Assembly (NCBI GenBank): GCA_030167865.1
Contig: JALAGF010003106.1
Span: 1 to 35,404, forward strand
Origin: Craspedostauros australis
Lineage: Eukaryota
Direction of reading: 5' to 3'
Length of the DNA: 35,404 bases
Notes under the pieces: generated by a model
The model's database searches: none
Seen by the model: only the letters and a program-made list of their open reading frames with translations
Told to the model about the DNA's origin: nothing
Shown: positions 1,924 to 35,404 of the stretch, in pieces
How positions within the stretch are numbered: the stretch's first letter is position 1
Layout: every line of letters begins with the position of its first letter
Made by a program: the position numbers and the translations under genes

Positions 1924-3357
1924 GGCGTCCGTCCTTCTTCTAACGCTCTATTCAGTGTGGTTGTTGGTGTCACAATGATGCCATGCACTGTGATGCACTG
2001 TGATGCAATGTGATTGATGGAGATGGGTGTGAATCGCCCTCCAGATCTCGTTCTGGCATTGTGTCCGCGTTGGCGTTGACGTCTGCGGGTGTTGATGTCT
2101 CTCCCTTGTTCTCGCGCCAACGCCAACGCCCTGTCTTGCGCCTGTCGTCACGGTTTGGTTGGTCGTGATCTCTTTGGTATACCACACACAAAGGAGATGA
2201 AACACATGTAATACGCAATTAGAGGTACCAAAACCGCTCGCGGAAGCACCTTTTCACCAACGCCAAACAAACGGAAGGCGTCAGTCACAATGGTCATCCG
2301 CAACAAGATTTTGTATCAATGAAAAAGGCACATGACAACACCTTTGCGACAACACGGTTTCTTGGTGTGTCACGCTGTTTGTCACGTTGCCGCCATTCTT
2401 GTCGATGTTCTTTTGTCGACACAGCGCCTTCGAAATTATCTTTCTGCTTCTGATTTGTCGCGGCAGCGCTGTGCTTGGCTCCTACAGTATGGGTGCGTAC
2501 GACTTTACGGATACTCCTGCCCTGTCGACGACAGCGTTGCAGTAACCACCATCTTGATCGCCATACCTCCACTACTGCCATCTGCGGACAAGGGAAGTTG
2601 AGGCAGTGGAGCGCGCAGATCTCTCGTCAACCTCCATTCACAACTCCATCTGCTGCTACGGGAGTATCTTGTGGAGTATTGGCAACAGCATCCTGTTGAT
2701 AAGAGTACCATACGGAGCATCACATCATACTATACTATACCATACCACACTACTAATATATAATAGTACAGAGAGACAGAGAGTCGAGACTGCTCGGGAG
2801 CACCAAGATCTGTGACAGGAGAAGAAGGAAGGCGCATCTCCATCCAACACCGTACCACAGATCGCGCGCTTGTGTTGCTGCGGCTTCTCAGAGGAGAGAA
2901 GAGGAGAGGACGCTCACCAGGAGGTGCATACTTGGGCGCTGCGACTTCTGCACCAGCCGTCTTTGAACTGTCCTCTCTCGACGTCGCTGCTCTTGTCGAC
3001 TTGGCTTGCACACCATACACAAGCAAGCAGGTTGAAGAGCAAGGAGTCAGAAAGCGAAGCACAGAAAAGGCTTGTGGTGAATCTCTTTCATCGTGCGATT
3101 GAGACAGAACCCATCATCAACTGCACCTCTCCTCTGCACTGCTTTACATACCTACTCTATCGTACTCTATCATCCTCTGTCGTACTCTATCGTACTCTAA
3201 TTGGAATGTTCAACGCTCAATAGCCAGCAGCCATCTCATCAACCAACCACATATCAACCACGTACCAACCAACAACAAACCAACAAACCATATCAACATA
3301 ACTACAACATCAACAAACTACATCAACAAACTACAACTACATCAACAACGAAAAGAC

Positions 3358-12300: not shown

Positions 12301-15300
12301 ACATTGTTTGATGCCCTGAGGCAACCCGGGTCCGGCGGAGAGGCTGCACCGACAACGGCCGTGGGTTCGCCGCGGATGCAGGTAGGATCACTGGGCCAAG
12401 GACGGCCAGGGACTGGATCCGGAAAAGGAGGCCGCAAGACGTTGTTCGACGCTCTCGGTCTCTCGCCTCCTCCATCGTCAAACCCAGCAGCAACTGCATC
12501 ATCCACAAACGGCGATGGTCGCTCGGGCGTGGCAGGAACGAAGACTCTTGCAGAAGCCTTGGGACTTCCGATGGATAATGCTGTGATATCCGCTCCGATC
12601 GCTTCGAGCACTTCGAATGGAAGATCTGCTCCTACCCAACGAGCTCCACAGGCCGCCAACGGCAGCAGTGGTAGACAAAAGACTTTGTTCGACGCGCTCG
12701 GGTTATCTCCTCCAGGCGGAGCTGCAGATGCCACTGCCCCTACTGTCGGAGCCATTGATGTCGGTGCGGCTAATACATCGCGCAGTGTGCCTTCCATCGG
12801 CAATGGCGGGAAGACTTTGTTCGATGCGCTTGGTGTCACATCAGCTGGCGAAAGAGGAGCAGCCACTCCTGCACTTGACAACCACGAAATTCCTAAGTTG
12901 CAACCACAGCAACCAACTCAGACCGGATCTGGTCGAGGCGGGCAGAGGACGCTGTTTGATGCGCTCGGCCTCTCGGGCCAGCAAGTTGCCAAGGAACAGC
13001 AACGCGTAACACCACCTTCTCAGGTTGCACCAAGGAAGGCAGGAACGAAGACCCTCGCAGAGGCTTTGGGAATTGCTCCTTCACAGAATCAGGATTCTCG
13101 TGCGGTTGCTGCTGTGCCAACGGGAGCGCCATCTCGACTTGATGTTGCTAGTCTTGGAGATGAGGGTACAAAGACCCTGTTCAGTGCGCTCGGTATCCAG
13201 ACGCCAGCCACTCCGACATCAAAGCCACAGCAGCAGCAGGAACGATCGGCTACCACAACCGACAGTCGCACAGGAGCATTGGGGACAAAGACTCTCGCAG
13301 AGGCTTTGGGACTATCTGCTGCGCAGATTCAGGGTCCCGCCGCGGTTCCTACCGTCGCAAATGTGATGTCATCCGAACCAAGTGTCGCTGGTTCTGCTCA
13401 AGAGACCCCGAGAACACTCTTCGATGCGCTTGGTATCCAGGCACCAACCACCGCAACTGCCAAACCAGCAATGCAACAAGAACGATCGGCTACCACAACC
13501 AACAGCCGCACAGGAGCAATGGGGACAAAGACTCTCGCCGAAGCTTTGGGCCTATCTGATGCGCAGACTCATCATCCTGCCGCGGTTCCTACCGTCGCAA
13601 AGGCGGTGCCATCCGAACCAGGTGTCGCTGGTTCTACTCAAGAGACCCCAAGGACACTCTTCGATGCACTTGGCATCCAGGCGCCGGCCGTTACAAGCTC
13701 GAAGCCACAACAACAAGAGCGATCGTCTGCCACAATCAACAGCCGGACAGGAGCAATGGGGACAAAGACTCTCGCCGAAGCTTTGGGACTATCTGCTGCG
13801 CAGATTCAGGATCCCGCCGCAGTTCCTACCGTCGCAAAGGTGGTGTCATCCGAACCAAGTGTCGCTGGTTCTACTCAAGAGACCCCAAGGACACTCTTCG
13901 ATGCACTCGGCATCCAGGTGCCGGCCGTTACAAGCTCGAAGCCGCAGCAGCAGATAGAACGATCGGCTACCGCAACCAACAGTCGCACAGGAGCATTGGG
14001 GACAAAGACTCTCGCCGAAGCTTTGGGACTATCTGCTGCGCAGACTCATCATCCTGCCGCGGTTCCTACCGTCGCAAAGGCGGTGCCATCCGAATCAAGC
14101 GTCGCTGGTTCTGCTCAAGAGACCCCAAGAACACTCTTCGATGCGCTCGGCATCCAGGCACCAACCACCGCAACTGCCAAACCAGCAATGCAACAAGAAC
14201 GATCGGCTGCCACAACCAACAGCCGCACAGGAGCATTGGGGACAAAGACTCTCGCCGAGGCGTTGGGATTATCTGCTGCGCAGACCCATCATCCTGCCGC
14301 GGTTCCTACTGTCGCAAAGGTGATGCCATCCGAACCAAGCGTCCCTGGTCCTGCTCAAGAGACCCCGAGGACACTCTTCGATGCACTTGGCATCCAGGTG
14401 CCGGCCGTTACAAGCTCGACGCCACAGCAGCAACAAGAACGATCGTCTGCCACAATCAACAGCCGGACAGGAGCAATGGGGACAAAGACTCTCGCCGAAG
14501 CTTTGGGACTATCTGCTGCGCAGACTCATCATCCTGCCGCGGTTCCTACCGTCGCAAAGGCGGTGCCATGCGAATCAAGCGTCGCTGGTTCTGCTCAAGA
14601 GACCCCAAGAACACTCTTCGATGCGCTTGGCATCCAGATGCCGGCCACTTCGGCATCAAAGCCACAACAGCAGATAGAACGATCGGCTACCACAACCGAC
14701 AGTCGCACAGGAGCATTGGGGACAAAGACTCTCGCCGAGGCGTTGGGATTATCTGCTGCGCAGACCCATCATCCCGCCGCGGTTCCTACCGTCGCAAATG
14801 TGATGCCATCTGAACCAAGCGTCGCTGGTTCTGCTCAAGAGACCCCGAGAACACTCTTCGATGCGCTTGGCATCCAGGCGCCGGCCACTTCGGCATCAAA
14901 GCCACAACAGCAGATAGAACGATCGGCTACCACAACCAACAGCCGCACAGGAGCATTGGGGACAAAGACTCTCGCAGAGGCTTTGGGACTATCTGCTGCG
15001 CAGACCCATCATCCCGCCGCGGTTCCTACTGTCGCAAAGGTGGCGTCATCCGAACCAAGCGTCGCTGGTTCTGCTCAAGAGACCCCGAGAACACTCTTCG
15101 ATGCGCTTGGTATCCAGGCACCAACCACCGCAACTGCCAAGCCAGCAATGCAACAAGAACGATCGGCTGCCACAACCAACAGTCGCACAGGAGCATTGGG
15201 GACAAAGACTCTCGCCGAAGCTTTGGGCCTATCTGATGCGCAGACTCATCATCCTGCCGCGGTTCCTACCGTCGCAAAGGCGGTGCCATCCGAATCAAGC

Positions 15301-18252
15301 GTCGCTGGTTCTACTCAAGAGACCCCAAGGACACTCTTCGATGCACTTGGCATCCAGGGACCGGCCGTTACAAGCTCGAAGCCGCAGCAGCAAGAACGAT
15401 CGGCTACCACAGCCGACAGCCGCACAGGAGCATCGGGGACAAAGACCCTCGCAGAGGCGTTGGGATTATCTGCTGCGCAGATTGAAGATCGCAACGTAGT
15501 TCCGCCCACGGCGCCGGTGCCAACCGCCACTACTCCCGAGCAAGGAAACTCGAGGACCTTGTTTGGTGCACTCGGCATCCAGACAGCGTCAGCGCCAGCG
15601 CCAGCCCCCGCAGGACAGACCACCACAGCCCCGGCGAGGCAGCAACCCCAAAAACGACCAGGCGGCCCATCAGATCGCCGCACGGGAGCAGCGGGCACAA
15701 AAACGCTCGGCGAAGCCCTTGGGCTTTCTCCGGCCCAGATCGCGGCTCCTCCCGCACCAAGACCACACCCGCAGCCAAGGAGTCAGAATTCTCAGAGATC
15801 ATTGACACAGCAGCAACAGCAGCAGCAAGCATCAGTGGCGAACGAGAAACGATCTGGTGCTGCTGGGACCAAGACACTTGGAGAAGCGTTGGGTCTGTCG
15901 ATGGCGGATATTTCAGGGAATCGAAATCAAGCACCAATTGTACTGGGTCGCTCGTCACGCGGTACCAACAATTCGCAACTGCCCTATAACCCTCAATCGC
16001 GAGGCGACAGCGACAGTGACTCCGAGTATGGCAGCAGCAGTGACAGTTATACCACATCCAGCAGCGGCTCTGGCTCTGACTACACATCCGGTTCGTCGTC
16101 CGGCTCGTCGTCGAGCCCTGTCGATAGGTTTGAAAGCGCCGATGGCAGCGCGAGGAATAGAGCTCCTCTTGAACCAAGCTCCAAGATTGTTGCCGCCAGT
16201 CGTGGAAGTCTCTTCGATTCATTGAGCAGTCCAAGGAACGATGCGGCAAAGAAGGTCGCTTTTGTCGACCCATCATCTGCATACGTGATAGTGCCAAAAA
16301 AGCGTGAGGCTTCGGTGGAGCAGCCGTCCTCTGGTTTGTCCATGAACGAAGCTATCTCATACATCGAAAAGCAGATGGGCAACGAACGGCACAGCACAGG
16401 ATCTGAGAAGATTCTGATGGATATCGCCAATCAGGCGACGAACGGTTTGCATGCCAAGGTGCCGCTGCCGCTGCCGCTGACACAGAAACGGGCATCTACA
16501 AAGCCACCAGCACCAGCGCAGCCATCGACGCCGGTGTCTAAATTGAGCCCGTCCAAGTCGACGACCATCCACTCGTCTTCGAAGCTGGAATGGTGGAAGA
16601 AGAATGGAAAGCAAGCCGTCTCCCAGGCTCGCGACGGCGTAGCACGCACCGAAGGAGCACCAACGCCCAGCAATGCTTTCGTGGCCGTCTCCCATCGCGA
16701 CGTGAGCGTTTTCGAACAAACCAGCGGAGAACACAGCAGCAGCAGCGCCGCGGCGCCCCCAAGTCCCAGTAGCAGCAGGCTCCGGCCGGAGATCCTTCCA
16801 GCTGTTGCGCCTCGCACAGACAGAGAACGAACGCCGTTGTCGAAATTGGACGCCCAATCGGAGAAGCAGCGCATGTCGCGGCTTTCGAAAAGGATTGAGA
16901 AGGCCCACAACCCCGAGCCTCGCACCAAGAATCACGTTAGTTTCACCTTGCCTTCGGCACCCGATGCGGAGCAGACTGAGCGGGCTGTGACGACGCCCAA
17001 CAAGCTCGAAGAGAAACGCCGCAGGGTGGCAGAGCAGCGCCGTGCTGTCGAGGAGAAGCTTGTCAGGAGTGGCGCAGCACCATCAGGAACACCAGAGAAG
17101 AGCCAAACGCCAGGTTCTGCTCGTACTACAACCGCTGCATCTCCATCTGCTTCAACAGCCGCCAGCCAGAGTCCAAGTCGACTGGAGGAGGCCAGGCGCC
17201 GTATCGCAGACGCCAGAAAAGCAAGAGAAGAACGTAAGAACGCTGCTGCTGGGGACAGCGACAACCCTGCGCAAGCAACAGGAACAGCAGCAGCGGTATC
17301 CACGACCGTCACCGCTGCCGGCGCTGATGATATCTCATCACAGCCTCGAGCACTAGAACCTCAAACGCCTCCGCGAACACCTAGCAGCGACGCTCGAACG
17401 AAGGTGCGCACGCCAGGCAGCGTTGCCAGCGCCAACTCCAGCGATCCGCGCCTAGTGGCCCTCCAGGAGAAACGCCGCAAGCTCGCTGAAGCACGTGCAA
17501 GAAGGGAGGAATTATCCAAAGCCAACACCAAGCCTTCACCATCTCCGAAGCTATCACAGCAGATGGCCCGAACCAATGATACACCTTCTCATATCGAGGC
17601 CTTGGCCGTGGGACCAACGTCAGAAGTGGTAACACAAAAGGCAGACGACTCCGTCAGTCAGCTCCGCCATGACGAGGAAGATGGCCACATCACGCATGCC
17701 ATGGTGCATGAAGTGGAGCGCATGTCCTTGCTGATTCGGAAGTACGAGCGCAGGATGGAGATGATGTGCAAAACTCTAATCATGCTGGAAGACGGCGAGG
17801 TGGGCGACAGTTCTGCAGCAACAGCAGCAGCCAGCCAGCAACTCCCACAACTGTACCACCACGTGGTCCAACAGCCATGGTTCACTGCTCATGCGGAGGG
17901 CGACCACTCCAGTCGATCCTCCTTGTTGGCAACTCCTGTAGTTACCCGCAGCGCAACCAACGGCCAAGCACCGGCGAGAGCCGCAGCCGCAGCAGACGCC
18001 AAGTACCGGCTGAGCCCCACAGGAAAGGCGTTCCTGAGGATGGACGGGCCGGTGGGAGCGGACATCGGTCGCTTCCTGGCGTCATTCGATTCCGTCGACA
18101 CGGTGAACATTTCTGTCCTCAAATCCAACTGGGAACAGATCTTCAACTTATCCAGAGATCATCAGAGCCATCGCATTCTGCTGAAGATCGACGATCTTTT
18201 GAGTGTCTGCGTCGAATCGAACTTGATCGAACTTGTTGAACGCCAACGATAA
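3358..18252 (+). CDS. Giant 4964-aa modular repeat protein of unknown function (acidic N-terminus, coiled coils, duplicated globular domain, two 80-aa tandem arrays, small C-terminal domain)
   Basis: Single 14,895-nt stop-free frame. The ATG follows a C/A-rich leader (aaaagacATG). Indels between repeat units preserve frame and many differences are synonymous. No hydrophobic signal peptide or TM segment is evident. Confidence 0.9.
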   Translation: MSNSVESYEEVEELVVGTSNHSYEEIVVSSDEEDFVEEIIEDDDEEEMSAEQLLASLHSSFQALVKRPSNIETSLATVRELEEHTGLDLSDDNLDRGPHSAQHSELIEEELVDDDEYDNDDEYDDINDSRRQSEHSVSMADSASVEFDLGSFTEEGTDEDSEPEDYDAACRRLISSVFRNVDNVDPDDMIRRCDLPTLYMHLKQQYRAKVRNKQILPDGDVAEMGNWEDFDSSKVSFSGGPFFPTMSDHTATSMASKDSTGNKRARSNASADHNNKRGNWDGFQDDADDPFGISSPSASAMQRKRPPKPDSATKPAATSAPPPPSSTSSSSSSSSSSSSQSSFGQESDNESSDDAATATDVPANAPMDSVDTSQIPHPTASATTSASPLTEQQSSTIPSSSSSASTNVATNTQQQQQPQEIGRQSSHEEQLEQVQRWLDRNADDPDDYPSANQILITLLYKDDTEHDVETMVHRTPPKELYRYLQQYYWYKVHNNELTKSSFQEAYTSYLNDPEAFIAEQQEKLYQERAAKKQELSAEEKMRRQRAKLLANDVLKRKEEMEREEERRKENLRQLREDAERELERLVREAEEKKAAQEAAQREQLAAQAMQDDSSGSDSSSSSSSAYGSPERGGSDASSSTSSQDAGDANIASILYAASNDDADAPAINADSSKTAITQEKERLIEEERRLAQALGKLQAEKDRLAGKVSQFSGDVSTSSNEDDMDSAGEPTSGSSDASSDEDDAAYLLNDKSRASDSNRYYQNWSESSNSAANTQNSAHSVDTAEREQGMSLLAGASGRGNTNSDASNESRQVQPPQRMLQSDDTSSSDSSSDSDSSESLHDDYEHMEDSSHHTEPSEREQRSKPPPKRTKSEEDRIQELSEILEFKHRLEKQKLQDEKRKLDERKFEFETFLIDKAKSLDDRRRAEETKLLGEATAREDQRKADDAKYRKELEKLEKDHQRLQKRGSKDMRNLESKRIQLHNRANKQFDIIEEESNRIEDQLAQEGKVMDDKLAHAQARLDALLSSTADDDNGEQGGGSPEKEKGAGFFGRLKNRKKQASIEQERRKQERLMQKKLKEIEVGKEISEIAEEIERLEEVASESEKKQVARKARLEQELQSSDRSIETEIKQLQHDLEKQEKKYAKESDRLNGELQNLQNLRVSDEQWFARESGLIEQRWRDSQDGLKDEAATQREQQKVAYDALQQQADELNDQNKQKDLRIHKEKSGSKKDKHVRFIANESVAQPEPAEETAAEPAKDDSAPAAEESAPTNEKQLAEQTKRSDFIEHELGAILKRAAQEMDGGMEREAVDALAQAAFRVTYTKNYYDVTTDDFLYFPTVAEAMLNYSIFEDANEFYGEEFPVEYTSEIRTVAAMLGTDGDVDDEYRNNMSMDLDLQKEYMGPSATFDLHKYLPAETARTPAADQVEQPEKDPSMQQQDPDTEKYKKEQELRSGLIQDELGTILKQATEEMGEKIESHAFDALIQAVFRVAYTQRFYDVTSDDFVYFPTVAESMLNYSVFEESRQFCVNGDPFPLDYTSEMRNVAAAISVNEDVDTEYRENMSTDLDLKAEFMDPSPSFDLSEYCEVQKKEFQSSILMDTYSLAFAELDPITETADTAPESISPETDSSYREDSKNDEDADNTAVYDFVVPDHLMHVNQPKAESSDDGMSIGSGDIFEDPSTQRGPVSLVEAARRAKEKIDEQNASGKVNHDDANQNSSSSKQRKVEAEIVVPDHLMYVNQPKSEMSDDGDSIGSTDLFDAPSSPQRPVTLVEAAKRAKAKIEEQNASAKTNNEAPATPSKPSAPAVQAVIPEHLLFANQPKTEMSDDGDSIGSGDIFDKPSASRGPVTLVEAAKRAKAKMEEQNASGKINNDSPPTPSKTSKAAVAPAVIPEHLLFANQPKTEMSDDGDSIGSGDIFDKPSAYQAPISLVEAAKRAKAKIEEQNALAKANNDAPATPSKTSKAAVAPVVIPEHLLFANQPKTEMSDDGDSIGSGDIFDKPSAYQAPVTLVEAARRAKAKMEEQNASGKINNDLPQTPSKASKAAVAHTAIPDHLLHVNQPKTEMSDDGDSIGSGDIFDEPSAYQAPVSLVEAAKRAKAKIEEQNASGTTDAAAPATPSKTSKAAVAPAIIPEHLLFANQPKTEMSDDGDSIGSGEIFDKPSAYQAPVSLVEAAKRAKAKIEEQNALAKVNNDAPATPSKTSKAAVAPVIIPEHLLFANQPKTEMSDDGDSIGSGDIFDKPSAYQAPVSLVEAAKRAKAKIEQQNASAKTSNDAPATPSKASKTVAHAAIPEHLLFANQPKTEMSDDGDSIGSGDIFDKPSAYQAPVTLVEAARRAKAKMEEQNASDKVNAEVTATAAAATTTSKTPSSKSVAQSPAAKLAAEHGSPSRAPRQVQLTPSELEYYESECRRLAKRTFDENEVDIDDMIANSDIHDLYNYLNKNQWYKTQQKSTESFSRGSASPSVTQSPRTRSRHSFPQARVEANGGSNAEPVSSRATSVTSGGRTLFDALGLSASDLHSSAPSTAKDGPQSTQIFAGSAKEGRMTLFDALRGPNDAPSGANASASANGGSGSAGTKTLAEALGLPLEHAGNTVSDNRPVSSTHDQSPTSPQRKGRKSLFDAMVASSASTGATSPSTQAGQPAGSGKTLFDALGGEGRGGTDQRSMSSPTPRPQTQRALPGSGQGGRKTLFDALDMSGTKKQGSQPKQPQSGGGKTLAAALGLSSIEDDRSPTPKQTTRENKTLFGALGLHDPDSQSAKTASPKQPQNTGQQAISGTQHRQKTLFDALGLQPSDTSTTPKASSKLQTPSQRNIQQTVGSGQKGQKTLFDALRVPKDEQAMTASTERSGAGGTKTLAEALGLTTDDASTTSDAPTHQVKNGGGKTLLDALRMTPPSKAAQTENRKASKPSSPPKSIQNGQRTLFDALGIPPQQPQPQAQAQQPELQQSSRKPQPKTLADALGLSVPHDTVTPHDRPAAGTPQKTLFDALRQPGSGGEAAPTTAVGSPRMQVGSLGQGRPGTGSGKGGRKTLFDALGLSPPPSSNPAATASSTNGDGRSGVAGTKTLAEALGLPMDNAVISAPIASSTSNGRSAPTQRAPQAANGSSGRQKTLFDALGLSPPGGAADATAPTVGAIDVGAANTSRSVPSIGNGGKTLFDALGVTSAGERGAATPALDNHEIPKLQPQQPTQTGSGRGGQRTLFDALGLSGQQVAKEQQRVTPPSQVAPRKAGTKTLAEALGIAPSQNQDSRAVAAVPTGAPSRLDVASLGDEGTKTLFSALGIQTPATPTSKPQQQQERSATTTDSRTGALGTKTLAEALGLSAAQIQGPAAVPTVANVMSSEPSVAGSAQETPRTLFDALGIQAPTTATAKPAMQQERSATTTNSRTGAMGTKTLAEALGLSDAQTHHPAAVPTVAKAVPSEPGVAGSTQETPRTLFDALGIQAPAVTSSKPQQQERSSATINSRTGAMGTKTLAEALGLSAAQIQDPAAVPTVAKVVSSEPSVAGSTQETPRTLFDALGIQVPAVTSSKPQQQIERSATATNSRTGALGTKTLAEALGLSAAQTHHPAAVPTVAKAVPSESSVAGSAQETPRTLFDALGIQAPTTATAKPAMQQERSAATTNSRTGALGTKTLAEALGLSAAQTHHPAAVPTVAKVMPSEPSVPGPAQETPRTLFDALGIQVPAVTSSTPQQQQERSSATINSRTGAMGTKTLAEALGLSAAQTHHPAAVPTVAKAVPCESSVAGSAQETPRTLFDALGIQMPATSASKPQQQIERSATTTDSRTGALGTKTLAEALGLSAAQTHHPAAVPTVANVMPSEPSVAGSAQETPRTLFDALGIQAPATSASKPQQQIERSATTTNSRTGALGTKTLAEALGLSAAQTHHPAAVPTVAKVASSEPSVAGSAQETPRTLFDALGIQAPTTATAKPAMQQERSAATTNSRTGALGTKTLAEALGLSDAQTHHPAAVPTVAKAVPSESSVAGSTQETPRTLFDALGIQGPAVTSSKPQQQERSATTADSRTGASGTKTLAEALGLSAAQIEDRNVVPPTAPVPTATTPEQGNSRTLFGALGIQTASAPAPAPAGQTTTAPARQQPQKRPGGPSDRRTGAAGTKTLGEALGLSPAQIAAPPAPRPHPQPRSQNSQRSLTQQQQQQQASVANEKRSGAAGTKTLGEALGLSMADISGNRNQAPIVLGRSSRGTNNSQLPYNPQSRGDSDSDSEYGSSSDSYTTSSSGSGSDYTSGSSSGSSSSPVDRFESADGSARNRAPLEPSSKIVAASRGSLFDSLSSPRNDAAKKVAFVDPSSAYVIVPKKREASVEQPSSGLSMNEAISYIEKQMGNERHSTGSEKILMDIANQATNGLHAKVPLPLPLTQKRASTKPPAPAQPSTPVSKLSPSKSTTIHSSSKLEWWKKNGKQAVSQARDGVARTEGAPTPSNAFVAVSHRDVSVFEQTSGEHSSSSAAAPPSPSSSRLRPEILPAVAPRTDRERTPLSKLDAQSEKQRMSRLSKRIEKAHNPEPRTKNHVSFTLPSAPDAEQTERAVTTPNKLEEKRRRVAEQRRAVEEKLVRSGAAPSGTPEKSQTPGSARTTTAASPSASTAASQSPSRLEEARRRIADARKAREERKNAAAGDSDNPAQATGTAAAVSTTVTAAGADDISSQPRALEPQTPPRTPSSDARTKVRTPGSVASANSSDPRLVALQEKRRKLAEARARREELSKANTKPSPSPKLSQQMARTNDTPSHIEALAVGPTSEVVTQKADDSVSQLRHDEEDGHITHAMVHEVERMSLLIRKYERRMEMMCKTLIMLEDGEVGDSSAATAAASQQLPQLYHHVVQQPWFTAHAEGDHSSRSSLLATPVVTRSATNGQAPARAAAAADAKYRLSPTGKAFLRMDGPVGADIGRFLASFDSVDTVNISVLKSNWEQIFNLSRDHQSHRILLKIDDLLSVCVESNLIELVERQR
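7201..8109 (+). repeat. Tandemly duplicated ~131-aa globular domain within the giant ORF (7201-7593 and 7711-8109)
   Basis: RSDFIEHELGAILK...FRVTYTKNYYDVTTDDFLYFPTVAEAMLNYSIFE...DLDLQKEYMGPSATFDL aligns with RSGLIQDELGTILK...FRVAYTQRFYDVTSDDFVYFPTVAESMLNYSVFE...DLDLKAEFMDPSPSFDL. Confidence 0.9.
8302..10404 (+). repeat. Coding tandem array A: 9 copies of a ~240-bp (80-aa) unit
   Basis: Unit IPEHLLFANQPKTEMSDDGDSIGSGDIFDKPSAYQAPVSLVEAAKRAKAKIEEQNA...TPSK... starts at 8302, 8548, 8785, 9025, 9265, 9505, 9745, 9985 and 10222. Confidence 0.95.
10864..15897 (+). repeat. About 44 copies of a short motif [KR]TL(F/A)(D/E)AL(G/R)(L/I) separated by S/T/G/Q/P/A-rich linkers
   Basis: Manual count from the translation: 22 irregularly spaced copies (10864-13200), 20 inside array B, and 2 after it. 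Confidence 0.9.
13201..15582 (+). repeat. Coding tandem array B: 9 regular plus 1 degenerate copy of a ~240-bp (80-aa) unit
   Basis: Unit ...ERSATTTNSRTGALGTKTLAEALGLSAAQTHHPAAVPTVAKAVPSEPSVAGSAQETPRTLFDALGIQ, with high nucleotide identity between copies. Confidence 0.95.
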
Positions 18253-26325: not shown

Positions 26326-28005
26326 TCATATTGCATCGTTAAACGGCGAAGTGGAAAAGTCAAAATCACCTTCATGCAGCTCATGGAATGGCATGAAGTC
26401 GAACAAGGTCGATACAGGCTGTTGCCTCCGAACAGCTGCGAATGCGGCTACGGTTTCAGCTTCAGCTGCGGATGGTGGCGCGGATTCTGGAGCTCTATCT
26501 GAGCTCATGCCGCTGTCTGTCACATCAAGTGACGCAAAACTGCTCTCGGCTGGGTTTTCGCCCATCATCCAACCATGCACCCATTTCGTGGCACGTTCAT
26601 CCGGGAGCGCAGGAAGACGGAACACGGCGGATGGTGGGCGAGGCAACGATACTTTCTTTGGTGCATCGAGGACTTTCTCCACCTCATCATCGAGTGTGAT
26701 GAACCTGTCTTCTGAGACATGGTGCAGAAGCGAGGCGCCACGGGGCATTAGCCTTGTGGCTGCAGAAGGAGCGTCTCTCACATGGGCAGAACCACGAAAG
26801 CTGCCATGGAGGCCACCCTTATTCATGCGCGTCGGCGAATGACCGCACCTCGCCTCTGCTGGTTGTTCCATCACGAAAGTACAGGCATCAGCAACGGTAT
26901 TTGCACCAACACTAACATCAGCACTGGCACTGACACTGACACTACCATCATCGGATATCACAGCGATTGTGCCCACGTAGCTGCCAGTTGGAGCCACGGT
27001 GGATACAATCGGAATGAGATCATCCATGTTCCATTCAGAACAGCAGGATCCATATTCCAATGGGTCTGCGGAGGAGAACTCGCAGGATGAACTGATCCGA
27101 GAGGCGAGCGACGCGAAGGTCCTGTCAAGGTCTTTCGTCGACGACGCGGTGGGGGCGAGATCGTGAGAGACGACAGGCAGTCTTGATCTTGCGATTTGCA
27201 TCTCTTGGGTGCTTGGCGCGAGCGGCCCATGCGGTGGGTGGCATGTCAGCCCTTGCTGGTCGCTGCAGAGCGACATGCAGACCATGTCACCTGATCCCAG
27301 GCGCGTTGGCGTGCTGGCTTGGTGTTCGGTATGAGTTCCATCCTTGATCTTGCACATGCTTGCTCCGCCGTTGACGGCAGCTCGCGCCTTGTCTACGGAA
27401 GTGGCAGCGGATGCCTTGACGCCCCTTGCCTTGGAGTCCTTTGCCTCGGCGAGTCGTCGCTGCCGTTGCAGGAGCTTCTTGAGGCAGTCTCTGATGGCAT
27501 GCCCAGCCTTGTCGCGGGCCACGTTGTTGCCAATATCGTACCAATGGTTAGTATCGGCGTCGCGCTTGAGGAACAGCGTCCCGTTCCGGCGCAGCTTTTT
27601 AATGACAGACGCAACGACGACGCTCTTGTCGATCTTCTTCGGCGCCGTGTTGTACTTCAGGGCGTTAGCCTTGATCAAGGCCTTGTACCGGACGTTGCCT
27701 GGGTGCTTCCAGCATATGGCTCCTCGACCACACAGCACATCGAAATCTCCAGGTGTGTAATCGTGAGGTAGCAAAGTCCTCGCTTCGTCCATGAACTGCC
27801 GTTTCTTGGCAGCAGACATCACACTCGATGAAGACTTCAACAGACTGTCATTGGGTGTTGCGGCTGGCATCGTCGTCGCTGCAGTTGGTGCCACCTTTTC
27901 GTTCGATGTCGTCAGGACGTTGATGGCTTCGCTCGACACCACGGGCGCCGTGGTACAAGCACTGACATTGGATGAGTCTGGATTGGCGGTCAATTCGAGG
28001 CACAT
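26326..28005 (-). CDS. DUF6824-domain protein, 559 aa (domain about 27487-27741)
   Basis: Signature DVLCGRG...HPGNVRY...Y......KS.V...VI......G..FLK......WYDIG...ARDKAGHAIRD, followed by a disordered region and an acidic/aromatic tail (LFDFMPFHELHEGDFDF). Confidence 0.88.
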   Translation of the reverse strand: MCLELTANPDSSNVSACTTAPVVSSEAINVLTTSNEKVAPTAATTMPAATPNDSLLKSSSSVMSAAKKRQFMDEARTLLPHDYTPGDFDVLCGRGAICWKHPGNVRYKALIKANALKYNTAPKKIDKSVVVASVIKKLRRNGTLFLKRDADTNHWYDIGNNVARDKAGHAIRDCLKKLLQRQRRLAEAKDSKARGVKASAATSVDKARAAVNGGASMCKIKDGTHTEHQASTPTRLGSGDMVCMSLCSDQQGLTCHPPHGPLAPSTQEMQIARSRLPVVSHDLAPTASSTKDLDRTFASLASRISSSCEFSSADPLEYGSCCSEWNMDDLIPIVSTVAPTGSYVGTIAVISDDGSVSVSASADVSVGANTVADACTFVMEQPAEARCGHSPTRMNKGGLHGSFRGSAHVRDAPSAATRLMPRGASLLHHVSEDRFITLDDEVEKVLDAPKKVSLPRPPSAVFRLPALPDERATKWVHGWMMGENPAESSFASLDVTDSGMSSDRAPESAPPSAAEAETVAAFAAVRRQQPVSTLFDFMPFHELHEGDFDFSTSPFNDAI

Positions 28006-28535
28006 TTTCTTACCAGCAGCGCATCGATGATCGAGAGTGACTATGTACTATATGCGATTGGATGGATGGGTCGACGTCTTGATGGATTGCTGTTTAAATT
28101 GGTGTTTGAGTTGGTGTTTGAATTGCTGGGTGGATGATATTCAGGTGACCGGACGGTGTGGCAATTGGTCAATTGCGGGTTGGCTGTGGAGTGCCTGTTC
28201 GCTTGGTGGTTGGTCGCTGATGCTGGTGCTGATGGTCTCCGACACGTCGGCTTGCTGATTTGCAGCGGCCGCCTTTTTGCGTGTGGGAGCGATCTTGGAA
28301 TAAACGATCTTGCGCACATCGAGGGGAGACAGTGCCCGCTGCACGAGCATGCACTTCGAGAAGCCCTCTCACACATCCATCCACACATTCATCCGCCATC
28401 TGTCACCCAGCATCTACCCATCACACGGCTGCCACGCTGCGTCGCGCATGATAGCGAATCATTTCGGAATACGATGCCGTGGCATCAGAAGGGCGTGCGC
28501 GCACGCTTGTGCTTTGCGATAAATGGTGCCTCCAT

Positions 28536-28589
28536 GTACCATCATGCCCGTAGAGCCCCCAAGTACCATCGTGCCCGTAGATTCCCCAT
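28536..28589. repeat. Imperfect 27-bp direct duplication
   Basis: gtaccatcatgcccgtagagcccccaa / gtaccatcgtgcccgtagattccccat (23/27 identical). Confidence 0.8.
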
Positions 28590-29036
28590 AGAATAGAATA
28601 GGTAGAGAGTATTTCGCAGAGTATCAAATGCTCCAGCTTCTTCTGCCGTGGTCGTGAGAGGAAGCAACTTGAACAATCTGTGATCGCCCATAAATGAAAA
28701 GTGTCTGCCTTCGTCAGGTGCACCAAGTCACCACCGCTGATTGCTGGCTGTCTTGACCGTTGCCCTCGTCTGCAAGTATGTCATTTCCCAGCCTCGTGCT
28801 CGTGTCAGAGCTCATATTCACAGGTACATGACGTACGTAGCCACACGAGGTCAGTCTGCAAGGCACGGGAATTCCGTTGAAACTGACACTCGATCGCACT
28901 TGACCAAGACGACCACTCTAGAAACGCAATCACGATTCGACTACAGCGACTAATATGCTGGACCAGTAGAAGAAAATATAACGTCTATAACCGTTATTGT
29001 TTTAAAATCCGAACACCAGGCTAATCGCAAATAAAC

Positions 29037-29223
29037 GTTGAAACTATCACTGATCTGTTGAAACTAATGACGAAACGTTGAAACTAATGACGAAACGTTG
29101 AAACTAATGAAGAACCGTTGAAACTAATGACGAAACGTTGAAACTAATGAAGAAACGTTGAAACTATCGGCGAGGTGTTGAAACTATCGGCGAGGTGTTG
29201 AAACTAATAGAGAGCCGTTGAAA
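29037..29223 (+). repeat. 20-bp-period array: 9 full units plus a partial, with invariant GTTGAAACTA core and variable 10-bp half
   Basis: Core at 29037, 29057 ... 29197, then GTTGAAA at 29217. Variable halves: tcactgatct, atgacgaaac, atgacgaaac, atgaagaacc, atgacgaaac, atgaagaaac, tcggcgaggt, tcggcgaggt, atagagagcc. Confidence 0.95.
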
Positions 29224-29527
29224 GCAGTCACGATTCATTCGTGAAGCCTCGTGACACTCCAGATGAAAAATGACGCACGTGATTTGATCGAGGCGATGTC
29301 ATCACACAACAAGGCAACGGCGGAAAAGCCTCCATTTCTGTTCGCGTTTTGTTGGTGCTCTTGCCATCCACTATCAGTCATCATACAATCGAACAAGACA
29401 GCAAGCCCAACAAGCTGGGCAACAAGCATCGGAGGAGGGCATTGAGGCGGAGGCAGCGAGGGAAGCCGTGCCGCAACCATCGCGAGCAGCAGAGGATGGC
29501 AGCAAGGGAGGAACCACCACAACAACC

Positions 29528-31272
29528 ATGAGCAGCAGGGGACGGCAGCGAGGCGGAGGCAGCACGAGCAGCAGCACTGCGAGAATCGCCAGCAGCAGGG
29601 GGCGGCAGCGAGGAGGAGACAGCGAGAGCACCACCACCGCAACCGTTGCAAGCAGCAGAGGAAGGCAACGAGGCAGAGGCAGCTTGAGTAGCAGCACCGC
29701 GAGCATCGCAAGCAGCGAGAGCAGCAACACCGCAACAATCGCAAGCAGCAGGAGACCGCGGCGAGGCAGAGGCAGCGAGAGCACCACCACCGCAAGTATC
29801 GCAAGCAGCAGAGGGCTGCAGCGAGGTGGAGGCGGCAAGAGCACCACCACCGCAACAATCGCAAGCAGCAGGAGACCACGGCGAGGCAGAGGCAGCGAGA
29901 GCACCACCACCGCAAGTATCGCAAGCAGCGAGAGCAGCAACACCGCAACAATTGCAAGCAGCAGGGGACCGCAGCGAGCTGGAGGCGGCGAGAGCACCAC
30001 CACCGCGACCATTGCAAGCAGCAGACGGCTGCCGCGAGGCAGAGGCGGTGAGAGCGCCACCACCACGAGCATTGCAAGCAGCAGACGGCTGCCGCGAGGC
30101 AGAGGCAGCGAGAGCACCACCACTGCAAGCAGCAAGAGCAGCAACACTGCAACAATTGCAAGCAACAGGGGACCGCGGCGAGCCGGAGGCGGCGAGAGCA
30201 CCACCACCGCAACCATCACAAGCACCAGAGGAAGGCAGCATGATGGAGGCAGCGAGGGCAGCAGCACGGCAACCCAGACATCAACCGAAACCGATTTCTT
30301 GGGGCACGGTGAAGTGCTCACACTTGGCCTCAAGTATGCCGGTTTCCGTCAGGAAAAGATGGCAGATCGCACGATGCAGACTCGCTTTGCTGCAACGTAC
30401 GGACTGTGCCCTGAAAGCTTTGCTTCCCTCTTCGTGGATCTCTTCAACAGCCAAACGGCACAATTCAAACGTCCGCGTCCGCGCGATCTCTTTGTTGTCT
30501 TGAACTGGCTGAAAACATACTGCACAGAGCATGTGATGGCTGGCCGATGGAATTTGGATGAGAAGACTATCCGTGGTCTCATCTGGTCGTACTTGCCAGC
30601 TATTCAAGCCCTGCTGCCACAAAAGGCAAGTGTGACAAAGGGAATCTTGTGCTGGAATGCTTCTTTCATTTCCTTCTCTCGAACGAACTCTCTCACATGT
30701 TTCTCTTCTTTCTTTTCATTCTGGTACACCATCAATAGGTCATCTGGCCGCCAAACACAACAGAACTTGCAGGAGACGATAAACACTTCATCATCACTGT
30801 TGATGGTGTTCACATCAGGATCCAAGAACCACGGATGGACCCAGGAACCAAGTGGTACTCTCACAAGTCTCACTCAGCTGGTTTGACGTATGAGCTCGGG
30901 ATATCCCTGGCAGAGAGCAAGCTGGTGTGGATCAATGGGCCATTTCCAGCTTCCACTTCAGATCTGGTGATGTATCGCAAGCCAGATGGTCTCAAATCCA
31001 AGATCCCACCGAATGCCCTGGTAATTGCTGATGGGGGGTACAACAATGAGCCTACAATCAGTGCCCCAAATCCGTGTGATTCTGCTGCTGTGAGGAAGTT
31101 CAAGAATCGAGCAAGAGCACGGCATGAGAGCTTTAACGGAAGAATCAAGAACTTCCAAGCACTTGCGAATGGGTACCGCAATCAACTGAGCAAGCATCAG
31201 TGCCTATTTGAGGCCTGCTGTGTTTTGATTCAGTACGAACTCGACCATGGCCATCCAATATTTGACATCTAA
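29528..31272 (+). CDS. PIF/Harbinger-like DDE transposase (DDE_Tnp_4-like), ~543 aa; join(29528..30625,30739..31272)
   Basis: The spliced frame gives ...RFAATYGLCP...LNWLKTY...AGRW...LLPQK|VIWPP...ITVDGVHIRIQEP...WYSHK...GLTYELGI...VWINGPFPAS.SD...VIADGGY...RARARHESFNGRIKNF. Putative catalytic D (VDG), D (ADGGY) and E (RHE) are intact. The start codon is uncertain. Confidence 0.85.
29531..30280 (+). repeat. T-poor 60-bp coding minisatellite (11 long units, one shortened, plus three 33-bp short units) in frame with the transposase
   Basis: Translates as (SSRGRQRGGDSESTTTATVA)-like units interspersed with SSESSNTATIA. Confidence 0.9.
30626..30738 (+). other. 113-nt intron in the transposase, probably GC-AG
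   Basis: AAG|GCAAGT donor, T/C-rich body, ctcac branch-like site and caatag|GTC acceptor. Removal joins the two transposase ORF halves in frame. Confidence 0.75.
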
Positions 31273-31344
31273 ACAACATGGGAGTCGAGTAGTAGGAACT
31301 AGTTGATTACTTATAGAATACTTCAATGTTTGCAACAGATTGCT

Positions 31345-31989
31345 TCATGCCTGGGAATAGAAGAGTTCGAGTGCCTCGTCAACACTCTCAGAATCAGTGT
31401 CACTGCTTGGAACACGTGTGTTGACTGCAAGATCAATCGATGCAAGATCAATTGATGCAAGCTTGCTGTCTTCTTCATGCTTGTCAGCCTTCATCTTCTT
31501 CGGGAGATTGTTGTGGCGCAGCACGGGATGAGAGCGCTTGAGGTGCTGCCCTTCGTCGCCCATGATTGTGTCTGTTGGGTTGCTCGAAGCTGCAGGGGCA
31601 CAGCAAGCAACAGTAGCAGGCGCCACTGTCGCAATTTTAACTGCTGCTGGTTCTTCCGCAGCGGGCTTCAGAGCATCTGCTGGCGCAAATGGCAATTGCA
31701 AGTCCAATGCATCGATGCCTTCCACAGTTTCAGCCGGATTCGCAGGAGCTGGATGGATGCCATTGTCATTGCTATAGACTGGGTCCGGACAAATTGGATA
31801 GATGCCATCATCATTGCTATGGACTGGGTCCGGACGACCTGGATGGATGACACCGCCATGGCTGAAGGTTTGGTTTGGCGTAGGGTCTTCTGGGCTCTCT
31901 GCGTAGCTTGAGACGTCGCTCATGCTCATGTTGTCATTTGCATCATGCCTGCCACTACCGGCGACGGTAAGCGATGCTGTGCGAATCAT
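31345..31989 (-). CDS. Hypothetical acidic, low-complexity 214-aa protein, convergent with the transposase
   Basis: The ORF ends 72 bp from the transposase stop. It has frame-preserving internal duplications (PDPVHSNDDGIYP / PDPVYSNDNGIHP; LASIDLASIDLA). Confidence 0.55.
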   Translation of the reverse strand: MIRTASLTVAGSGRHDANDNMSMSDVSSYAESPEDPTPNQTFSHGGVIHPGRPDPVHSNDDGIYPICPDPVYSNDNGIHPAPANPAETVEGIDALDLQLPFAPADALKPAAEEPAAVKIATVAPATVACCAPAASSNPTDTIMGDEGQHLKRSHPVLRHNNLPKKMKADKHEEDSKLASIDLASIDLAVNTRVPSSDTDSESVDEALELFYSQA

Positions 31990-32120
31990 GACAGTTTGGG
32001 TGCGTGCACGTCAATGAAGAAAGAGCAGTTGGTGTTTGTTTGTGAGTAATCAGTCTAATTTGATGTTACTACAATGGTAGAGCAAAGCACAGGTCAATCA
32101 GGTCGAATCAAATGCTCGTT

Positions 32121-33233
32121 TTACGCACCGGCTTTGCCCATCATTGCGAAGAAATCGTCTTCACCCTCGCTGTGGTCTTCCTCGATGTCCACCTTTCCAT
32201 CGAATCCCTTGATCGCAACTTTCCAGTACACCACATTCATTGGAATTTGATATTCCATGTGGCTCTTGTGGTGGATGTGATGCTTTGCGATCGGTCGGTA
32301 CGTTTTCGCGAGGCGCTCTGGCTCGTTTCCAAAGTAGTTGGTGGAGAGCACCATGCCATCAGGGCAGATGAAGTAGGTGTACTTGGTCTCTGCACCTCTG
32401 TTGAGCTCTCTGTTGACGAGCTTGTTGAAGGCATTCTTTTCCCTCCCAATGTTGGGATCATGGTTCCCCTTCTTTGTGAGAAACATTGTTTGTGTGGATC
32501 TCTCGAGCATCACGGCTGGGACGCTTGGCTCCTCAATCTTGATAGAGATCCCATCATCGCACAGGGATGCCTTCACCTTCGTGACATCATCCTTGTCCAG
32601 AATGAACTTGCGGATGACAAGGCAGTCCAGGGAGCGGCCATCCAGCAGCACGTCATTGACACGATAGATGATCGTGTTGTCGGCATTCTGGAAAGGGCGG
32701 TCGAGGTCTATCTTGTACTCCATCCCAGCATGATCTTCGTTGGTGAAGTTGCTGGTGTCATCGCTGTTCTTCGCCATCTTGTTCTTGTATGAGCTGAAGT
32801 TGATCCTTCGTCTTTGTGGTGGTGAGGTTGTTGTCGATACTGTTGATATTGGTGCGGTTGGCACGGAAGTGGGAGGTGTTGATGCGACTGTTGGCGTGTC
32901 GATCGTCTCCTTGGCTGGTTTGTGATCTCCTCTGTCATTCTCCAGCTCAAGGGCCTCTCTGTGTGTTTGCTGTAGTGCCAAAAGGCCAGCTCGGTCCAGC
33001 CGTCTTCTGAGGTAGTACATTCGTTGGCGGCTGGCTTCGCGCAGATCAGAATTGCGCTTGCCATGGATGTGCTGATTGTCGTCACAGTGAGCTTTGAATG
33101 TGTCCAAGCGACTTGCTCCGAGCAAAAAATCCAACACAGAGAGATCGACTTCACGAGTCACCGACTTCTTATTTGAACGGCTGGGAGTTTTTTGGCGGGC
33201 GGACCGCGGCGCGGGAGAAGTAATCTGTTCCAT
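32121..33233 (-). CDS. Hypothetical 370-aa two-domain protein (helical/basic N-domain, P/T linker, beta-rich C-domain), putative transposon accessory protein
   Basis: Start chosen at cacacgATGgaa (MEQITSP...). The upstream extension in the ORF track looks non-coding. Amino-acid composition is natural from this ATG onward. Confidence 0.75.
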   Translation of the reverse strand: MEQITSPAPRSARQKTPSRSNKKSVTREVDLSVLDFLLGASRLDTFKAHCDDNQHIHGKRNSDLREASRQRMYYLRRRLDRAGLLALQQTHREALELENDRGDHKPAKETIDTPTVASTPPTSVPTAPISTVSTTTSPPQRRRINFSSYKNKMAKNSDDTSNFTNEDHAGMEYKIDLDRPFQNADNTIIYRVNDVLLDGRSLDCLVIRKFILDKDDVTKVKASLCDDGISIKIEEPSVPAVMLERSTQTMFLTKKGNHDPNIGREKNAFNKLVNRELNRGAETKYTYFICPDGMVLSTNYFGNEPERLAKTYRPIAKHHIHHKSHMEYQIPMNVVYWKVAIKGFDGKVDIEEDHSEGEDDFFAMMGKAGA

Positions 33234-33943
33234 CGTGTGCTGGAGTGTGGCGCAGAGTGTGGTGCCGAATGCGTTCTCTTGATTGGCTCCTGAATTTCTC
33301 TGCTGGTGGGTTTTGTGATGGTTCGGCAGAGTCCAATTTTGGCTGCCATTCAAACACCGACACCACCCACAGAAGAGCACGCAATGACACGAGGAAGAGA
33401 GGAAGAGATTTCTCTGTGTGCTGATGATGATCACTTCACACAAGACCATACCTACACAAACAATGACAGTGCCAAGTATAATACGAATGTGGTCCCACCA
33501 ACTTGGAGAAAGCAAGGCCAACTGTAATTCGAACAACCGGATGAGCAACACAAGCCAGGAGATTGAAATGCAACAGCACCATGTGCAAGGACATGGTCAG
33601 CAACGGACACACACGGAAACAGCACCATGGTCATGTGCAAATGCGGGTACAGGATAAACGGTATGTTGCACGGAAAGGTACCAGATGAAGCAACAATCTT
33701 GATACCAGTACCTTGGCAGCAACAGCAGAAGGTGCACCCAGGGCACCATTGCAACAACGCCAGCAAACTACATCGAATGGCATGGTGCGCATCCATGGTA
33801 TCCAAATTGGTGACATCGAGTGTTTTCAATGCAAGTCCATTGACACCGCAGCAAGACCATCATCACATACATCGTCTCTTCTTGGCACAGCCACCATCGC
33901 AACCCTCATCGTGAAAGCCTGGTGATCATCATCGCAAGACAGG

Positions 33944-34420
33944 ATGCCCATGAAATGGGCCGACGCAAAAGCAGTGCTGGAGAAGGACCTGAAGATGGGA
34001 GCCATCACACCAGAGATGACTCCCAAGCAGATATACGAAGGGAGGGTTGAGTTTGGCAGCATCAAGTACACCAACTTTCGGAACAATCTCAATCGACTAA
34101 GAAAGAAATGGAGGAAGTACGAAGAAGAAGCAAACAAAGCTGATGAAGCACTTGCAGCATTTGAACGGATGCACATCTCAACACCTCGTGCATCAAAGCT
34201 GCGATGGGATGGATCGGAAGCACAGCGAATGCTGAAGCAAGACATGCAAGATGATGCTGTGAAATGCCTCTCATCAAAGCAGGTCCACAACCTGCGAAAT
34301 TGCAATCAGGTCTTTCCGATCGATCAGTTTCGAAAGCACTTTCACGCAGCAAAGAGATCGAAGTATGAATCACTCTACTGGCAGCAGCGAAAGAACAACA
34401 GGAAGACGTCCAAGAAGTGA
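33944..34420 (+). CDS. 158-aa basic protein with two internal ~50-aa helical repeats, candidate DNA-binding accessory protein
   Basis: WADAKAVLEKDL...KQIYEGR...FRNNL and WDGSEAQRMLKQDM...KQVHNLR...FRKHF, with a K/R-rich C-terminus. Confidence 0.75.
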   Translation: MPMKWADAKAVLEKDLKMGAITPEMTPKQIYEGRVEFGSIKYTNFRNNLNRLRKKWRKYEEEANKADEALAAFERMHISTPRASKLRWDGSEAQRMLKQDMQDDAVKCLSSKQVHNLRNCNQVFPIDQFRKHFHAAKRSKYESLYWQQRKNNRKTSKK

Positions 34421-35404
34421 GGCCATTGCGCTCACGATCACTACCACACCCGGAGAAAATTAACAATAGTAGGAACTCAACACTCTGCATGTAATTAACT
34501 ATCAATCATCTTCAATGTATTTGGTTTCAGATATGATTGCTGGTTCTTGTTGTGTGTGTGCTGTGGTGTCCGTCTCTGTGCAGATCTGGGCGCGCGATGC
34601 ACCACACTCACTTGGCAAACCGATAGCACGAGTTGTACAGTTTTTAGATCTCCAGCGTGGGATTAGTCGTGTTGCGTAGCCCAGTCTGGAGCAAAATTGC
34701 AATCCATCCCAAAAACGCTTATGATGCTATATCGCAACACCACATCATCTACAATTAAAACTAAGTGTACCATGTGAACAACTCGTTGGTTGCGAATAAG
34801 AATATTGGACTTAAATTGAAATTGACTTCAAATTTAACATCATTTTGTTGCCAACGTGCGATTGTGTGTGGCGCAAAATTCTGGATGGGACCATGCTGCC
34901 GTTGCTTTGCCATCCAAGACGATGCCCATGAATGTCTCATTTCGTTCACTTGCACACCTCATTGTCTCCATATACCCCATTTGTATCCATCCCTGGCAAG
35001 CATGCACCAGTGTATCTCCCTTCAATCCGCATTGTCAGCTCACTGCTGAAAACCAACACCTTGACAATGAGGGTCGATCTTCACACAGCCGCTTCATCCG
35101 ACCATACCTCCTGTTCACAACCATCTATGTTCCTCCTCCCCCAAGCATCATACCTCGATCCCTGATTCATTGAGGGCATGTTGATGCATCCTCCAATGCC
35201 TCAGGATGTATCTCTGCATTTCAATTCATCCCGATGCTGGTACCATGGCCAGCTTTCTTTGTCTCGGAAATGCGACTGCCACATTTTCTTGATTTCCACC
35301 TCTCCCACTCAATCGAACCAATCCCCACTTCTCCACCCCATTCCCGACTTGATGATGAAGACATCTTATATGGGTCGTTTGGCAATGTGATGGATGTTCA
35401 CATG

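Follow-up and report, generated by a model that had tools for sequence, protein, structure and literature searches.

The 35,404-nucleotide contig JALAGF010003106.1 of the Craspedostauros australis assembly GCA_030167865.1 (positions 1 to 35,404, forward strand; its full length is hereafter the window) carries a Harbinger-like transposase gene, together with a phased repeat array and three further open reading frames (ORFs). The array, a 20-bp tandem repeat delimited by Tandem Repeats Finder (29033..29223, + strand), comes first, and we read it as the transposase-side subterminal repeats and a putative protein-binding site. The transposase gene follows on the + strand, then ORF214 (31345..31989, - strand), ORF370 (32121..33233, - strand) and ORF158 (33944..34420, + strand). 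The initial annotation had located the same five features, and the gaps that it gave between consecutive genes, 72, 131 and 710 bp, agree with ours. The last of these (33234..33943) separates two head-to-head genes and is presumed to be the shared promoter region of ORF370 and ORF158. These two ORFs belong to protein families, here called P370 and P158, that recur beside relatives of the transposase in metagenome contigs.

A PIF/Harbinger transposase with one predicted intron

The transposase frame at 29468-30886 continues in a second frame at 30835-31272, and on the sequence the two are one gene with one intron. Exon 1 (29528..30625, + strand) most likely starts at the first ATG, at 29528. 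Exon 2 (30739..31272, + strand, including the stop codon) carries the catalytic core. Between them lies a predicted phase 0 intron of 113 nt (30626..30738, + strand), with a change of frame from 30625 to 30739. Its donor is AG|GCAAGT and its acceptor AG (GC-AG), with an alternative GT donor 6 nt downstream. We place the splice by the sequence itself and by an insertion that the relatives P0001, P0002 and P0021 carry at the alignment column matching the window intron.

Exon 2 matches the Pfam family DDE_Tnp_4 (PF13359) with an expectation value (E) of 7.1e-12 and 45.7 bits against a cut-off of 24.8, and the same domain is found in relatives (L018, 4.8e-12; L047, 1e-08; P0002, 1.1e-13). Residues D22 (VDG), D98 (ADGGY) and E130 (RHE) of exon 2 are invariant across 22 aligned sequences and, judging from these motifs, are the presumed catalytic residues. 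By such criteria of sequence the protein is a PIF/Harbinger transposase. A homolog search with exon 2 returned 80 transposases with identities of at most 57%, and the only named relatives among them are from Nitzschia species. In the transposase tree, the terminal branch that leads to the window copy is long (0.9 changes per column, compared with a median of 0.28).

Exon 1 opens with a repeat-built region (~29531-30274) of nested tandem repeats with periods of 60, 93, 153 and 213 bp and Ser/Thr/Arg/Gly-rich units, which is followed by the helical N-terminal domain common to the relatives. In our alignment of the family (A1), the window domain after the repeats matches the consensus of the relatives, which likewise have Arg/Gly-rich N-termini. 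Six of six frames are open across 29531-30274, and we therefore infer the coding status of the repeat region solely from its continuity with the conserved domain.

Two partner families are linked to the transposase

To study the surroundings of related transposases, loci were chosen by the transposase alone, in a scan of public metagenome contigs with alignment A1. A transposase relative is encoded in 284 of the 374 candidate stretches, and the best 80 of the 284 were kept (L001-L080). Some of these are near-duplicate or overlapping (L003/L004, L048/L050, L031/L043, L001/L023, L033/L034/L037, L022/L026 and L053/L054), and L026 holds two transposase pieces, for which the span used in the architecture counts was set by hand. 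A tblastn search with ORF158 matches the flanks of many loci (best in L005, 38% identity over 155 residues, E 1e-28). P158 relatives were collected by iterated search, and P370 relatives by a homolog profile and then iterated search.

Of the 80 loci, 26 have P158 and 25 have P370; 17 have both and 34 have at least one of the two. Where the contig reaches 2.5 kb or more beyond the transposase on one side (26 loci), the corresponding counts are 17, 19, 15 and 21; where it reaches 4 kb or more (20 loci), they are 14, 15, 12 and 17. The initial annotation had named, as one outcome fatal to its proposal, that homologs of the extra ORFs are never linked to this transposase family; for ORF370 and ORF158 this is contradicted by the 21 of 26 long-flank loci that have either partner. 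Among the 17 loci with both partners, all pairwise DNA identities are below 80%. In the window, the hidden Markov models of P158 and P370 each match once only, at ORF158 and ORF370.

Of the 17 loci, 13 have P158 and P370 head to head, their matched parts being separated by 216-615 bp, compared with 710 bp in the window. The order seen in the window (transposase +, P370 -, P158 +) is found in five metagenome loci (L057, L064, L065, L071 and L075). Elsewhere the pair lies downstream of the transposase in the opposite orientation (L002, L005, L021, L030, L051 and L079) or upstream of it (L052 and L073). This variation in order and orientation argues against a conserved host neighborhood.

The three genes are inherited as a set. 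Pairwise identities of the three proteins co-vary over 18 loci (Spearman coefficients of 0.50, 0.62 and 0.48, computed over 140 non-independent pairs), and the four loci nearest to the window include L005 and L018 whichever of the three proteins is compared, and L002 when the comparison is by transposase or by P158. Three-gene loci are scattered across the whole transposase tree (16 changes over 18 rows, compared with a shuffled mean of 16.3). Most simply read, the three-gene set was already present in the ancestor of the family, and loci that lack it are mostly on contigs too short to show it. In Nitzschia inconspicua, whose transposase gene models are placed on long contigs, a P158-like part forms the N-terminus of four of the five models, on four contigs of 3-4.6 Mb; in one of its proteins (P0062), residues 113-227 match the P158 profile with an E of 1.2e-31. 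We take each of these models to be a gene-prediction fusion of two neighboring genes of the element.

P158 and P370 are unrelated proteins outside described families

At an E of up to 0.1, Pfam finds no Myb, SANT or MADF domain, nor any other family, in ORF158, ORF214 and ORF370; the initial annotation had recognized no canonical Myb/MADF domain in them. The same holds for the families, with no Myb, SANT, MADF or other Pfam family among 17 P158 members and no Myb, SANT, MADF, HSP20, CS or other Pfam family among 30 P370 members. For both ORF158 and ORF370, word-based homolog searches gave no match, a protein atlas gave no usable match, and Foldseek comparison of the models with the PDB gave no match at an E of up to 0.001. 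Against the sequences of solved structures, the best E was only 0.027 for the P158 profile and 1.5 for that of P370. The two families are unrelated to each other (hhalign probability 0.5%).

ORF158 encodes a small, basic protein (isoelectric point (pI) 10.0) with a Lys/Arg-rich tail that is conserved in the P158 family. The family alignment contains two repeats, each opening with W-x2-S-x-A-K/R-x-L-L, and the AlphaFold2 model of ORF158 consists of two helical bundles (mean pLDDT 92). The length of the ORF is unremarkable: ~1-2 frames of this size would be expected in 35 kb, and two antisense frames, of 159 and 138 amino acids (aa), overlap it. As this length is not beyond chance, the reality of ORF158 rests on its homologs. 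In fold comparisons the first half of the protein has a weak likeness to FF domains and to the helical part of the P element transposase (Z 5.8), and the second half to homeodomains (Z 4.5-5.5; for HD-ZIP, Z 5.5 with a root-mean-square deviation (rmsd) of 2.6 Å over 69 residues). On the model, the second half may thus have a remote kinship to three-helix DNA-binding domains. The P158 relative of L018 carries a C-terminal SAP domain (E 2.6e-10).

ORF370 lies in a stop-free frame of 476 codons, far beyond chance. A HMMER search of 1.84 billion representatives returned 32 distant homologs at an E of up to 1e-3, several of them matching end to end with lengths of 360-400 aa. The 10 relatives that we looked up come from metagenome collections, and most are called hypothetical or unnamed. 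The AlphaFold2 model (mean pLDDT 77.6) has a helical domain at residues 27-101, a disordered linker and a beta-sandwich at ~168-345 that holds a helical insert of ~40 residues. The predicted sandwich superposes on the alpha-crystallin domain of Hsp20.1 (Z 8.1, rmsd 2.6 Å, 80/87 residues) and on the CS domains of Sgt1 (Z 7.5, rmsd 2.8 Å, 82 residues) and Shq1 (Z 7.3, rmsd 2.5 Å, 81 residues), a Z near 8 falling in the middling range on the scale of the comparison tool. In a second fold comparison, the first eight rows, all small heat-shock proteins except for one Sgt1 CS domain, score Z 7.1-8.4, the ninth scores 5.5 and later ones 4.0 or less. An XRCC4-like head, suggested for the C-terminal domain by a weak Foldseek row (PAXX), is absent from the matches of this second comparison and was rejected. 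As modeled, the N-terminal domain is similar to winged-helix regulators of the PadR/MarR type, with Z 5.8-6.9 and 65-84 residues aligned (for 1xma_B, Z 6.8, rmsd 2.2 Å, 70 residues), but the model has helices only and no beta wing. In an 800-aa metagenome protein (P0082), five stretches match ORF370 residues 3-127 alongside matches to DUF7083 and to an RNase H1 N-terminal domain (Cauli_VI), which suggests that the P370 N-terminal domain can occur in other contexts.

ORF214 is probably specific to a sub-lineage

ORF214 is acidic (pI 4.6), of low complexity and contains 45-bp repeats, and as a whole it has no homolog in the flanks of the 80 loci. It includes an 11-residue motif, IMGDEGQHLKR, at 31534-31566. 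Closely similar motifs occur in ORFs of L038, L071 and L075, on the same strand and a few hundred bases downstream of P370, and the window and these three loci give the only matches to the motif pattern in 363 kb read in six frames. If only sources extending 1 kb or more beyond P370 on its downstream side are counted (21: the window and 20 loci), 4 have the motif. Its recurrence at the same place suggests that ORF214 is probably a real coding sequence of a sub-lineage. It could be either a small fourth gene or the 3' exon of the ORF370 gene. P370 homologs of ~360-400 aa terminate at the end of ORF370, and in-frame GT...AG introns that would join ORF370 to ORF214 are non-discriminating, with 24-55 candidates in each of the four motif loci.

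Phased arrays recur upstream of related transposases

The core of the window array, GTTGAAACTA, is present in 9 exact copies that are always 20 bp apart (29037...29197). Tandem Repeats Finder reports 6.7-8.4 copies, depending on the row, with 87% matches. When up to 1 mismatch is allowed, the core has 11 matches in the whole window compared with 1.2 expected, and 0 of 100 shuffles reach 11. Of 52 informative loci, 27 have arrays with a period of 8-30 bp in the 600 bp that precede the transposase domain, an upper count for non-coding arrays as some may be coding repeats of the Arg/Gly-rich N-termini (e.g., L061). The density of arrays with this period is 1.17 per kb in the upstream 600 bp and 0.21 per kb elsewhere. 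A TGAAACT core is common to the window array, the L002 unit TTTTGCTGAAACTA and the L019 unit GAAAGTTGAAACT. The recurrence of upstream arrays and the TGAAACT of L002 and L019 thus make the window array look like a family hallmark, a set of subterminal repeats. In L047, four to six GCGACAACTA repeats are located just inside each end of the element. In L066, a 21-bp motif upstream of the transposase (8-28) recurs five times in inverted orientation within an array of 96-bp period at 1390-2004.

Inverted repeats enclose all three genes in related elements

Three relatives have both ends. L047 and L076 are colinear over ~7.3 kb with 73% identity and have unrelated flanks, the similarity beginning exactly at the inverted repeat. 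The L047 element (2978-10638) has terminal inverted repeats (TIRs) of 33 bp with 97% identity, the L076 element (4895-12644) has TIRs of 30 bp with 90% identity, and in the L018 element the repeats, at 154 and 8998, are 74 bp long and 93% identical; each element encloses all three genes. The bounded elements measure 7.7-8.9 kb and include further variable ORFs. Those of L018 (154-8998) encode a 134-aa protein with an HA (helicase-associated) domain, a 400-aa acidic protein and a 697-aa Cys-rich coiled-coil protein. L047 (7090-9590), L076 (9027-11525) and L050 (1717-3906) have in common an ORF of 518-833 aa that matches no Pfam family and lies between P370 and P158. The trinucleotides that flank the elements are CAG on both sides of L018, CAG/CTG for L047 and CTG/CAG for L076. 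Since only L018 has an identical CWG on its two sides, the trinucleotide may represent either a duplication or a piece of the repeat itself. One TIR begins with GGGCG, which we take to resemble PIF-type ends.

The sharp boundaries, TIRs and 3-bp duplications that the initial annotation had proposed to look for were not found for the window copy. Inverted repeats between 28000-29470 and 31270-35404 are at chance level (best match 12 nt, E 0.3). The longest inverted pairs found in the window were rejected as ends because they fall inside coding frames, and a 20-bp inverted pair in L052 was rejected as a terminal repeat because it is a CTAG low-complexity run. The window ends 984 bp after ORF158, and the other end of the copy may thus lie beyond it, or be lost.

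Genes surrounding the element

The window apparently comes from a eukaryotic, diatom-like genome. Directly upstream of the element, a 559-aa ORF (26326-28005, - strand) carries a DUF6824 domain (E 8.2e-25), which we take to be typical of diatoms. Farther upstream, a single open frame of 4964 aa (3358-18252, + strand) contains many KTLFDALG-like units, with two blocks of 240-bp (80-aa) tandem repeats at 8671-10385 (7.2 copies) and 13185-15481 (9.6 copies), and has no Pfam family match. A 252-aa ORF (1165-1923, - strand) combines an RRM domain (E 2.4e-07) and a CCCH zinc finger (E 2.6e-07).

Discussion

We consider it very probable that the transposase, P158 and P370 constitute a conserved three-gene transposon, and probable that the window holds a complete or partial copy of this lineage of the PIF/Harbinger superfamily, in which these are the conserved genes. 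The only named hosts among the relatives of the element are diatoms. The initial annotation had proposed a Harbinger-like element of several genes, with unfamiliar proteins replacing or supplementing the Myb partner; the proposal is supported for the array, the transposase, ORF370 and ORF158, and is much weaker for ORF214.

Several observations weigh against this interpretation. Neither partner was detected in L004, L009, L048, L074 and L078, each of which has at least 2.5 kb of flank. In the window, no TIR of the element and no inverted copy of the array motif were found downstream of ORF158, over the 984 bp that lead to the window end. L002, the closest informative relative of the window copy, also has an array on the transposase side only, and in L066 the array copies sit between the transposase and P158, so that the partners may sometimes fall outside the array-bounded unit. 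L009 contains a transposase-only unit of ~1.3 kb (4111-5452) between inverted arrays with a palindromic unit of 20-22 bp, TTGCGGCAGGCTGCCGCAAT; this may be a minimal derivative relying on partners supplied in trans. All six termini of the bounded elements L018, L047 and L076 abut CWG and not TWA. The fold matches of P158 are within the chance range for small helical domains, and that the proteins bind DNA, contact one another and bring about transposition is in each case an inference.

An alternative that we regard as unlikely is that the window copy is immobilized and that the transposase, P370 and P158 are transposon-derived genes, possibly co-domesticated, which are kept by the host. This would fit a window in which no TIR, duplication or second array was found and all three reading frames are intact, as well as the long terminal branch of the transposase (0.9 versus 0.28) and its N-terminus expanded by tandem repeats. 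Co-domesticated Harbinger pairs without inverted repeats or duplications are known in insects (PMC9710019) and Arabidopsis (PMC5339849). However, the array retains 9 exactly phased, near-identical units, which is unexpected for a copy that has long been immobile unless they are reused, and with only 984 bp after ORF158 the other end may be beyond the window.

It is more unlikely still that P158 and P370 are host-derived cargo, unneeded for a transposition that the transposase would achieve alone or with a host factor. Bounded elements do carry several further variable ORFs (in L018, and in the group L047/L076/L050), and the unit of L009 has a transposase and nothing else between its arrays. 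Yet P158 and P370, unlike the variable ORFs, recur over the whole transposase tree and co-vary with the transposase, and no free-standing named host homolog turned up, the 10 P370 relatives looked up all being metagenomic. Finally, that the three extra ORFs are ordinary host genes that stand by chance beside a transposase insertion is very improbable: word-based searches left ORF370 and ORF158 without homologs, no family names them and ORF214 has no full-length homolog, but either partner is found in 21 of 26 long-flank loci with varying order and orientation, and within inverted repeats in 3 elements, which contradicts a chance neighborhood for ORF370 and ORF158 while leaving it possible for ORF214.

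If the three genes are indeed parts of one transposon, a mechanism can be proposed by analogy with Harbinger3_DR, whose Myb-like protein binds a 9-bp subterminal motif, interacts with the transposase and brings it into the nucleus (PMC9710019). P158, alone or with P370, would stand in for the Myb-like ORF1 found in canonical Harbingers, binding the subterminal repeats, whose 20-bp spacing would put the units on one helix face, and bringing the transposase to the element ends and into the nucleus. The pI of 10, the conserved basic tail, the SAP fusion in L018 and the weak homeodomain likeness point to such a DNA-binding role, and we give nearly even chances to P158 as the candidate partner that reads the repeats. 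P370 could be an adaptor or a co-chaperone-like assembly factor, its CS/HSP20-like domain being used for protein contacts, although we rather doubt that it is required for transposition. ORF214 would be an accessory part restricted to a sub-lineage. A fuller version of the mechanism, which we put forward tentatively and think less probable than its opposite, is a three-component system in which transposition would need a transposase, a non-Myb, DNA-binding P158 that reads phased subterminal arrays and an HSP20/CS-like adaptor, P370, with CWG in place of the TWA target. In such a system P370 might conceivably assemble or chaperone the complex, or link it to the chaperone or chromatin machinery of the host. 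The element would then be the first cut-and-paste transposon to encode a co-chaperone-like factor, P370.

The interest of this element is that a whole PIF/Harbinger lineage has two other partner proteins in place of the Myb-like one, neither of them of a described family, which are inherited with the transposase and the phased arrays. If these partners are needed for movement, the idea of a minimal Harbinger system changes, and two new protein families gain a testable function. Compact and apparently intact, the element is also a candidate for genetic work in diatoms, which have few tools based on DNA transposons. The linkage further explains some transposase models of Nitzschia inconspicua as apparent fusions of neighboring element genes. 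Harbinger-like elements have been noted in Thalassiosira pseudonana (PMC2806351). Full-text searches of the literature brought up no account of a conserved three-gene Harbinger in diatoms, and an existing database entry is possible.

PIF/Harbinger is the textbook two-protein DNA transposon, with a transposase and a Myb-like partner. The ISL2EU and Spy groups of the PIF/IS5 assemblage have related DDE transposases and depart from the TWA duplication and the Myb partner; to our knowledge, their partner genes are not like P158 or P370. Canonical Harbinger elements require both the transposase and the Myb-like protein (PMC9710019), and a separately encoded partner is needed in canonical PIF/Harbinger (PMC2836001). 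Like rice Ping/Pong and zebrafish Harbinger3_DR, the element described here has a DDE_Tnp_4-type transposase with a helical N-terminal domain, subterminal repeats and, in its relatives, TIRs. Unlike canonical PIF/Harbinger, it has two conserved partners that are encoded head to head, neither of which is Myb, SANT or MADF by Pfam; the termini of its relatives abut CWG and not a TWA duplication, and the bounded elements reach 7.7-8.9 kb with further ORFs. The ORF370 C-terminal domain, as modeled, resembles the HSP20/alpha-crystallin and CS domains (p23, Sgt1, Shq1) on which it superposes, but it differs from them in having no sequence-profile match, a helical insert of ~40 residues and a fused helical N-terminal domain. 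The co-domesticated pairs of insects (PIF-like and MADF) and Arabidopsis (HDP1/HDP2) offer a further parallel, in that the window transposase adjoins its partners with intact frames and no inverted repeats or duplications found. These pairs keep a Myb/MADF partner and are single-copy and syntenic across species (PMC9710019), whereas the window partners come from other families and the left array is retained. We regard the element as a new form of PIF/Harbinger, set apart by its departure from the Myb/MADF partner and the TWA duplication, and not as a new class.

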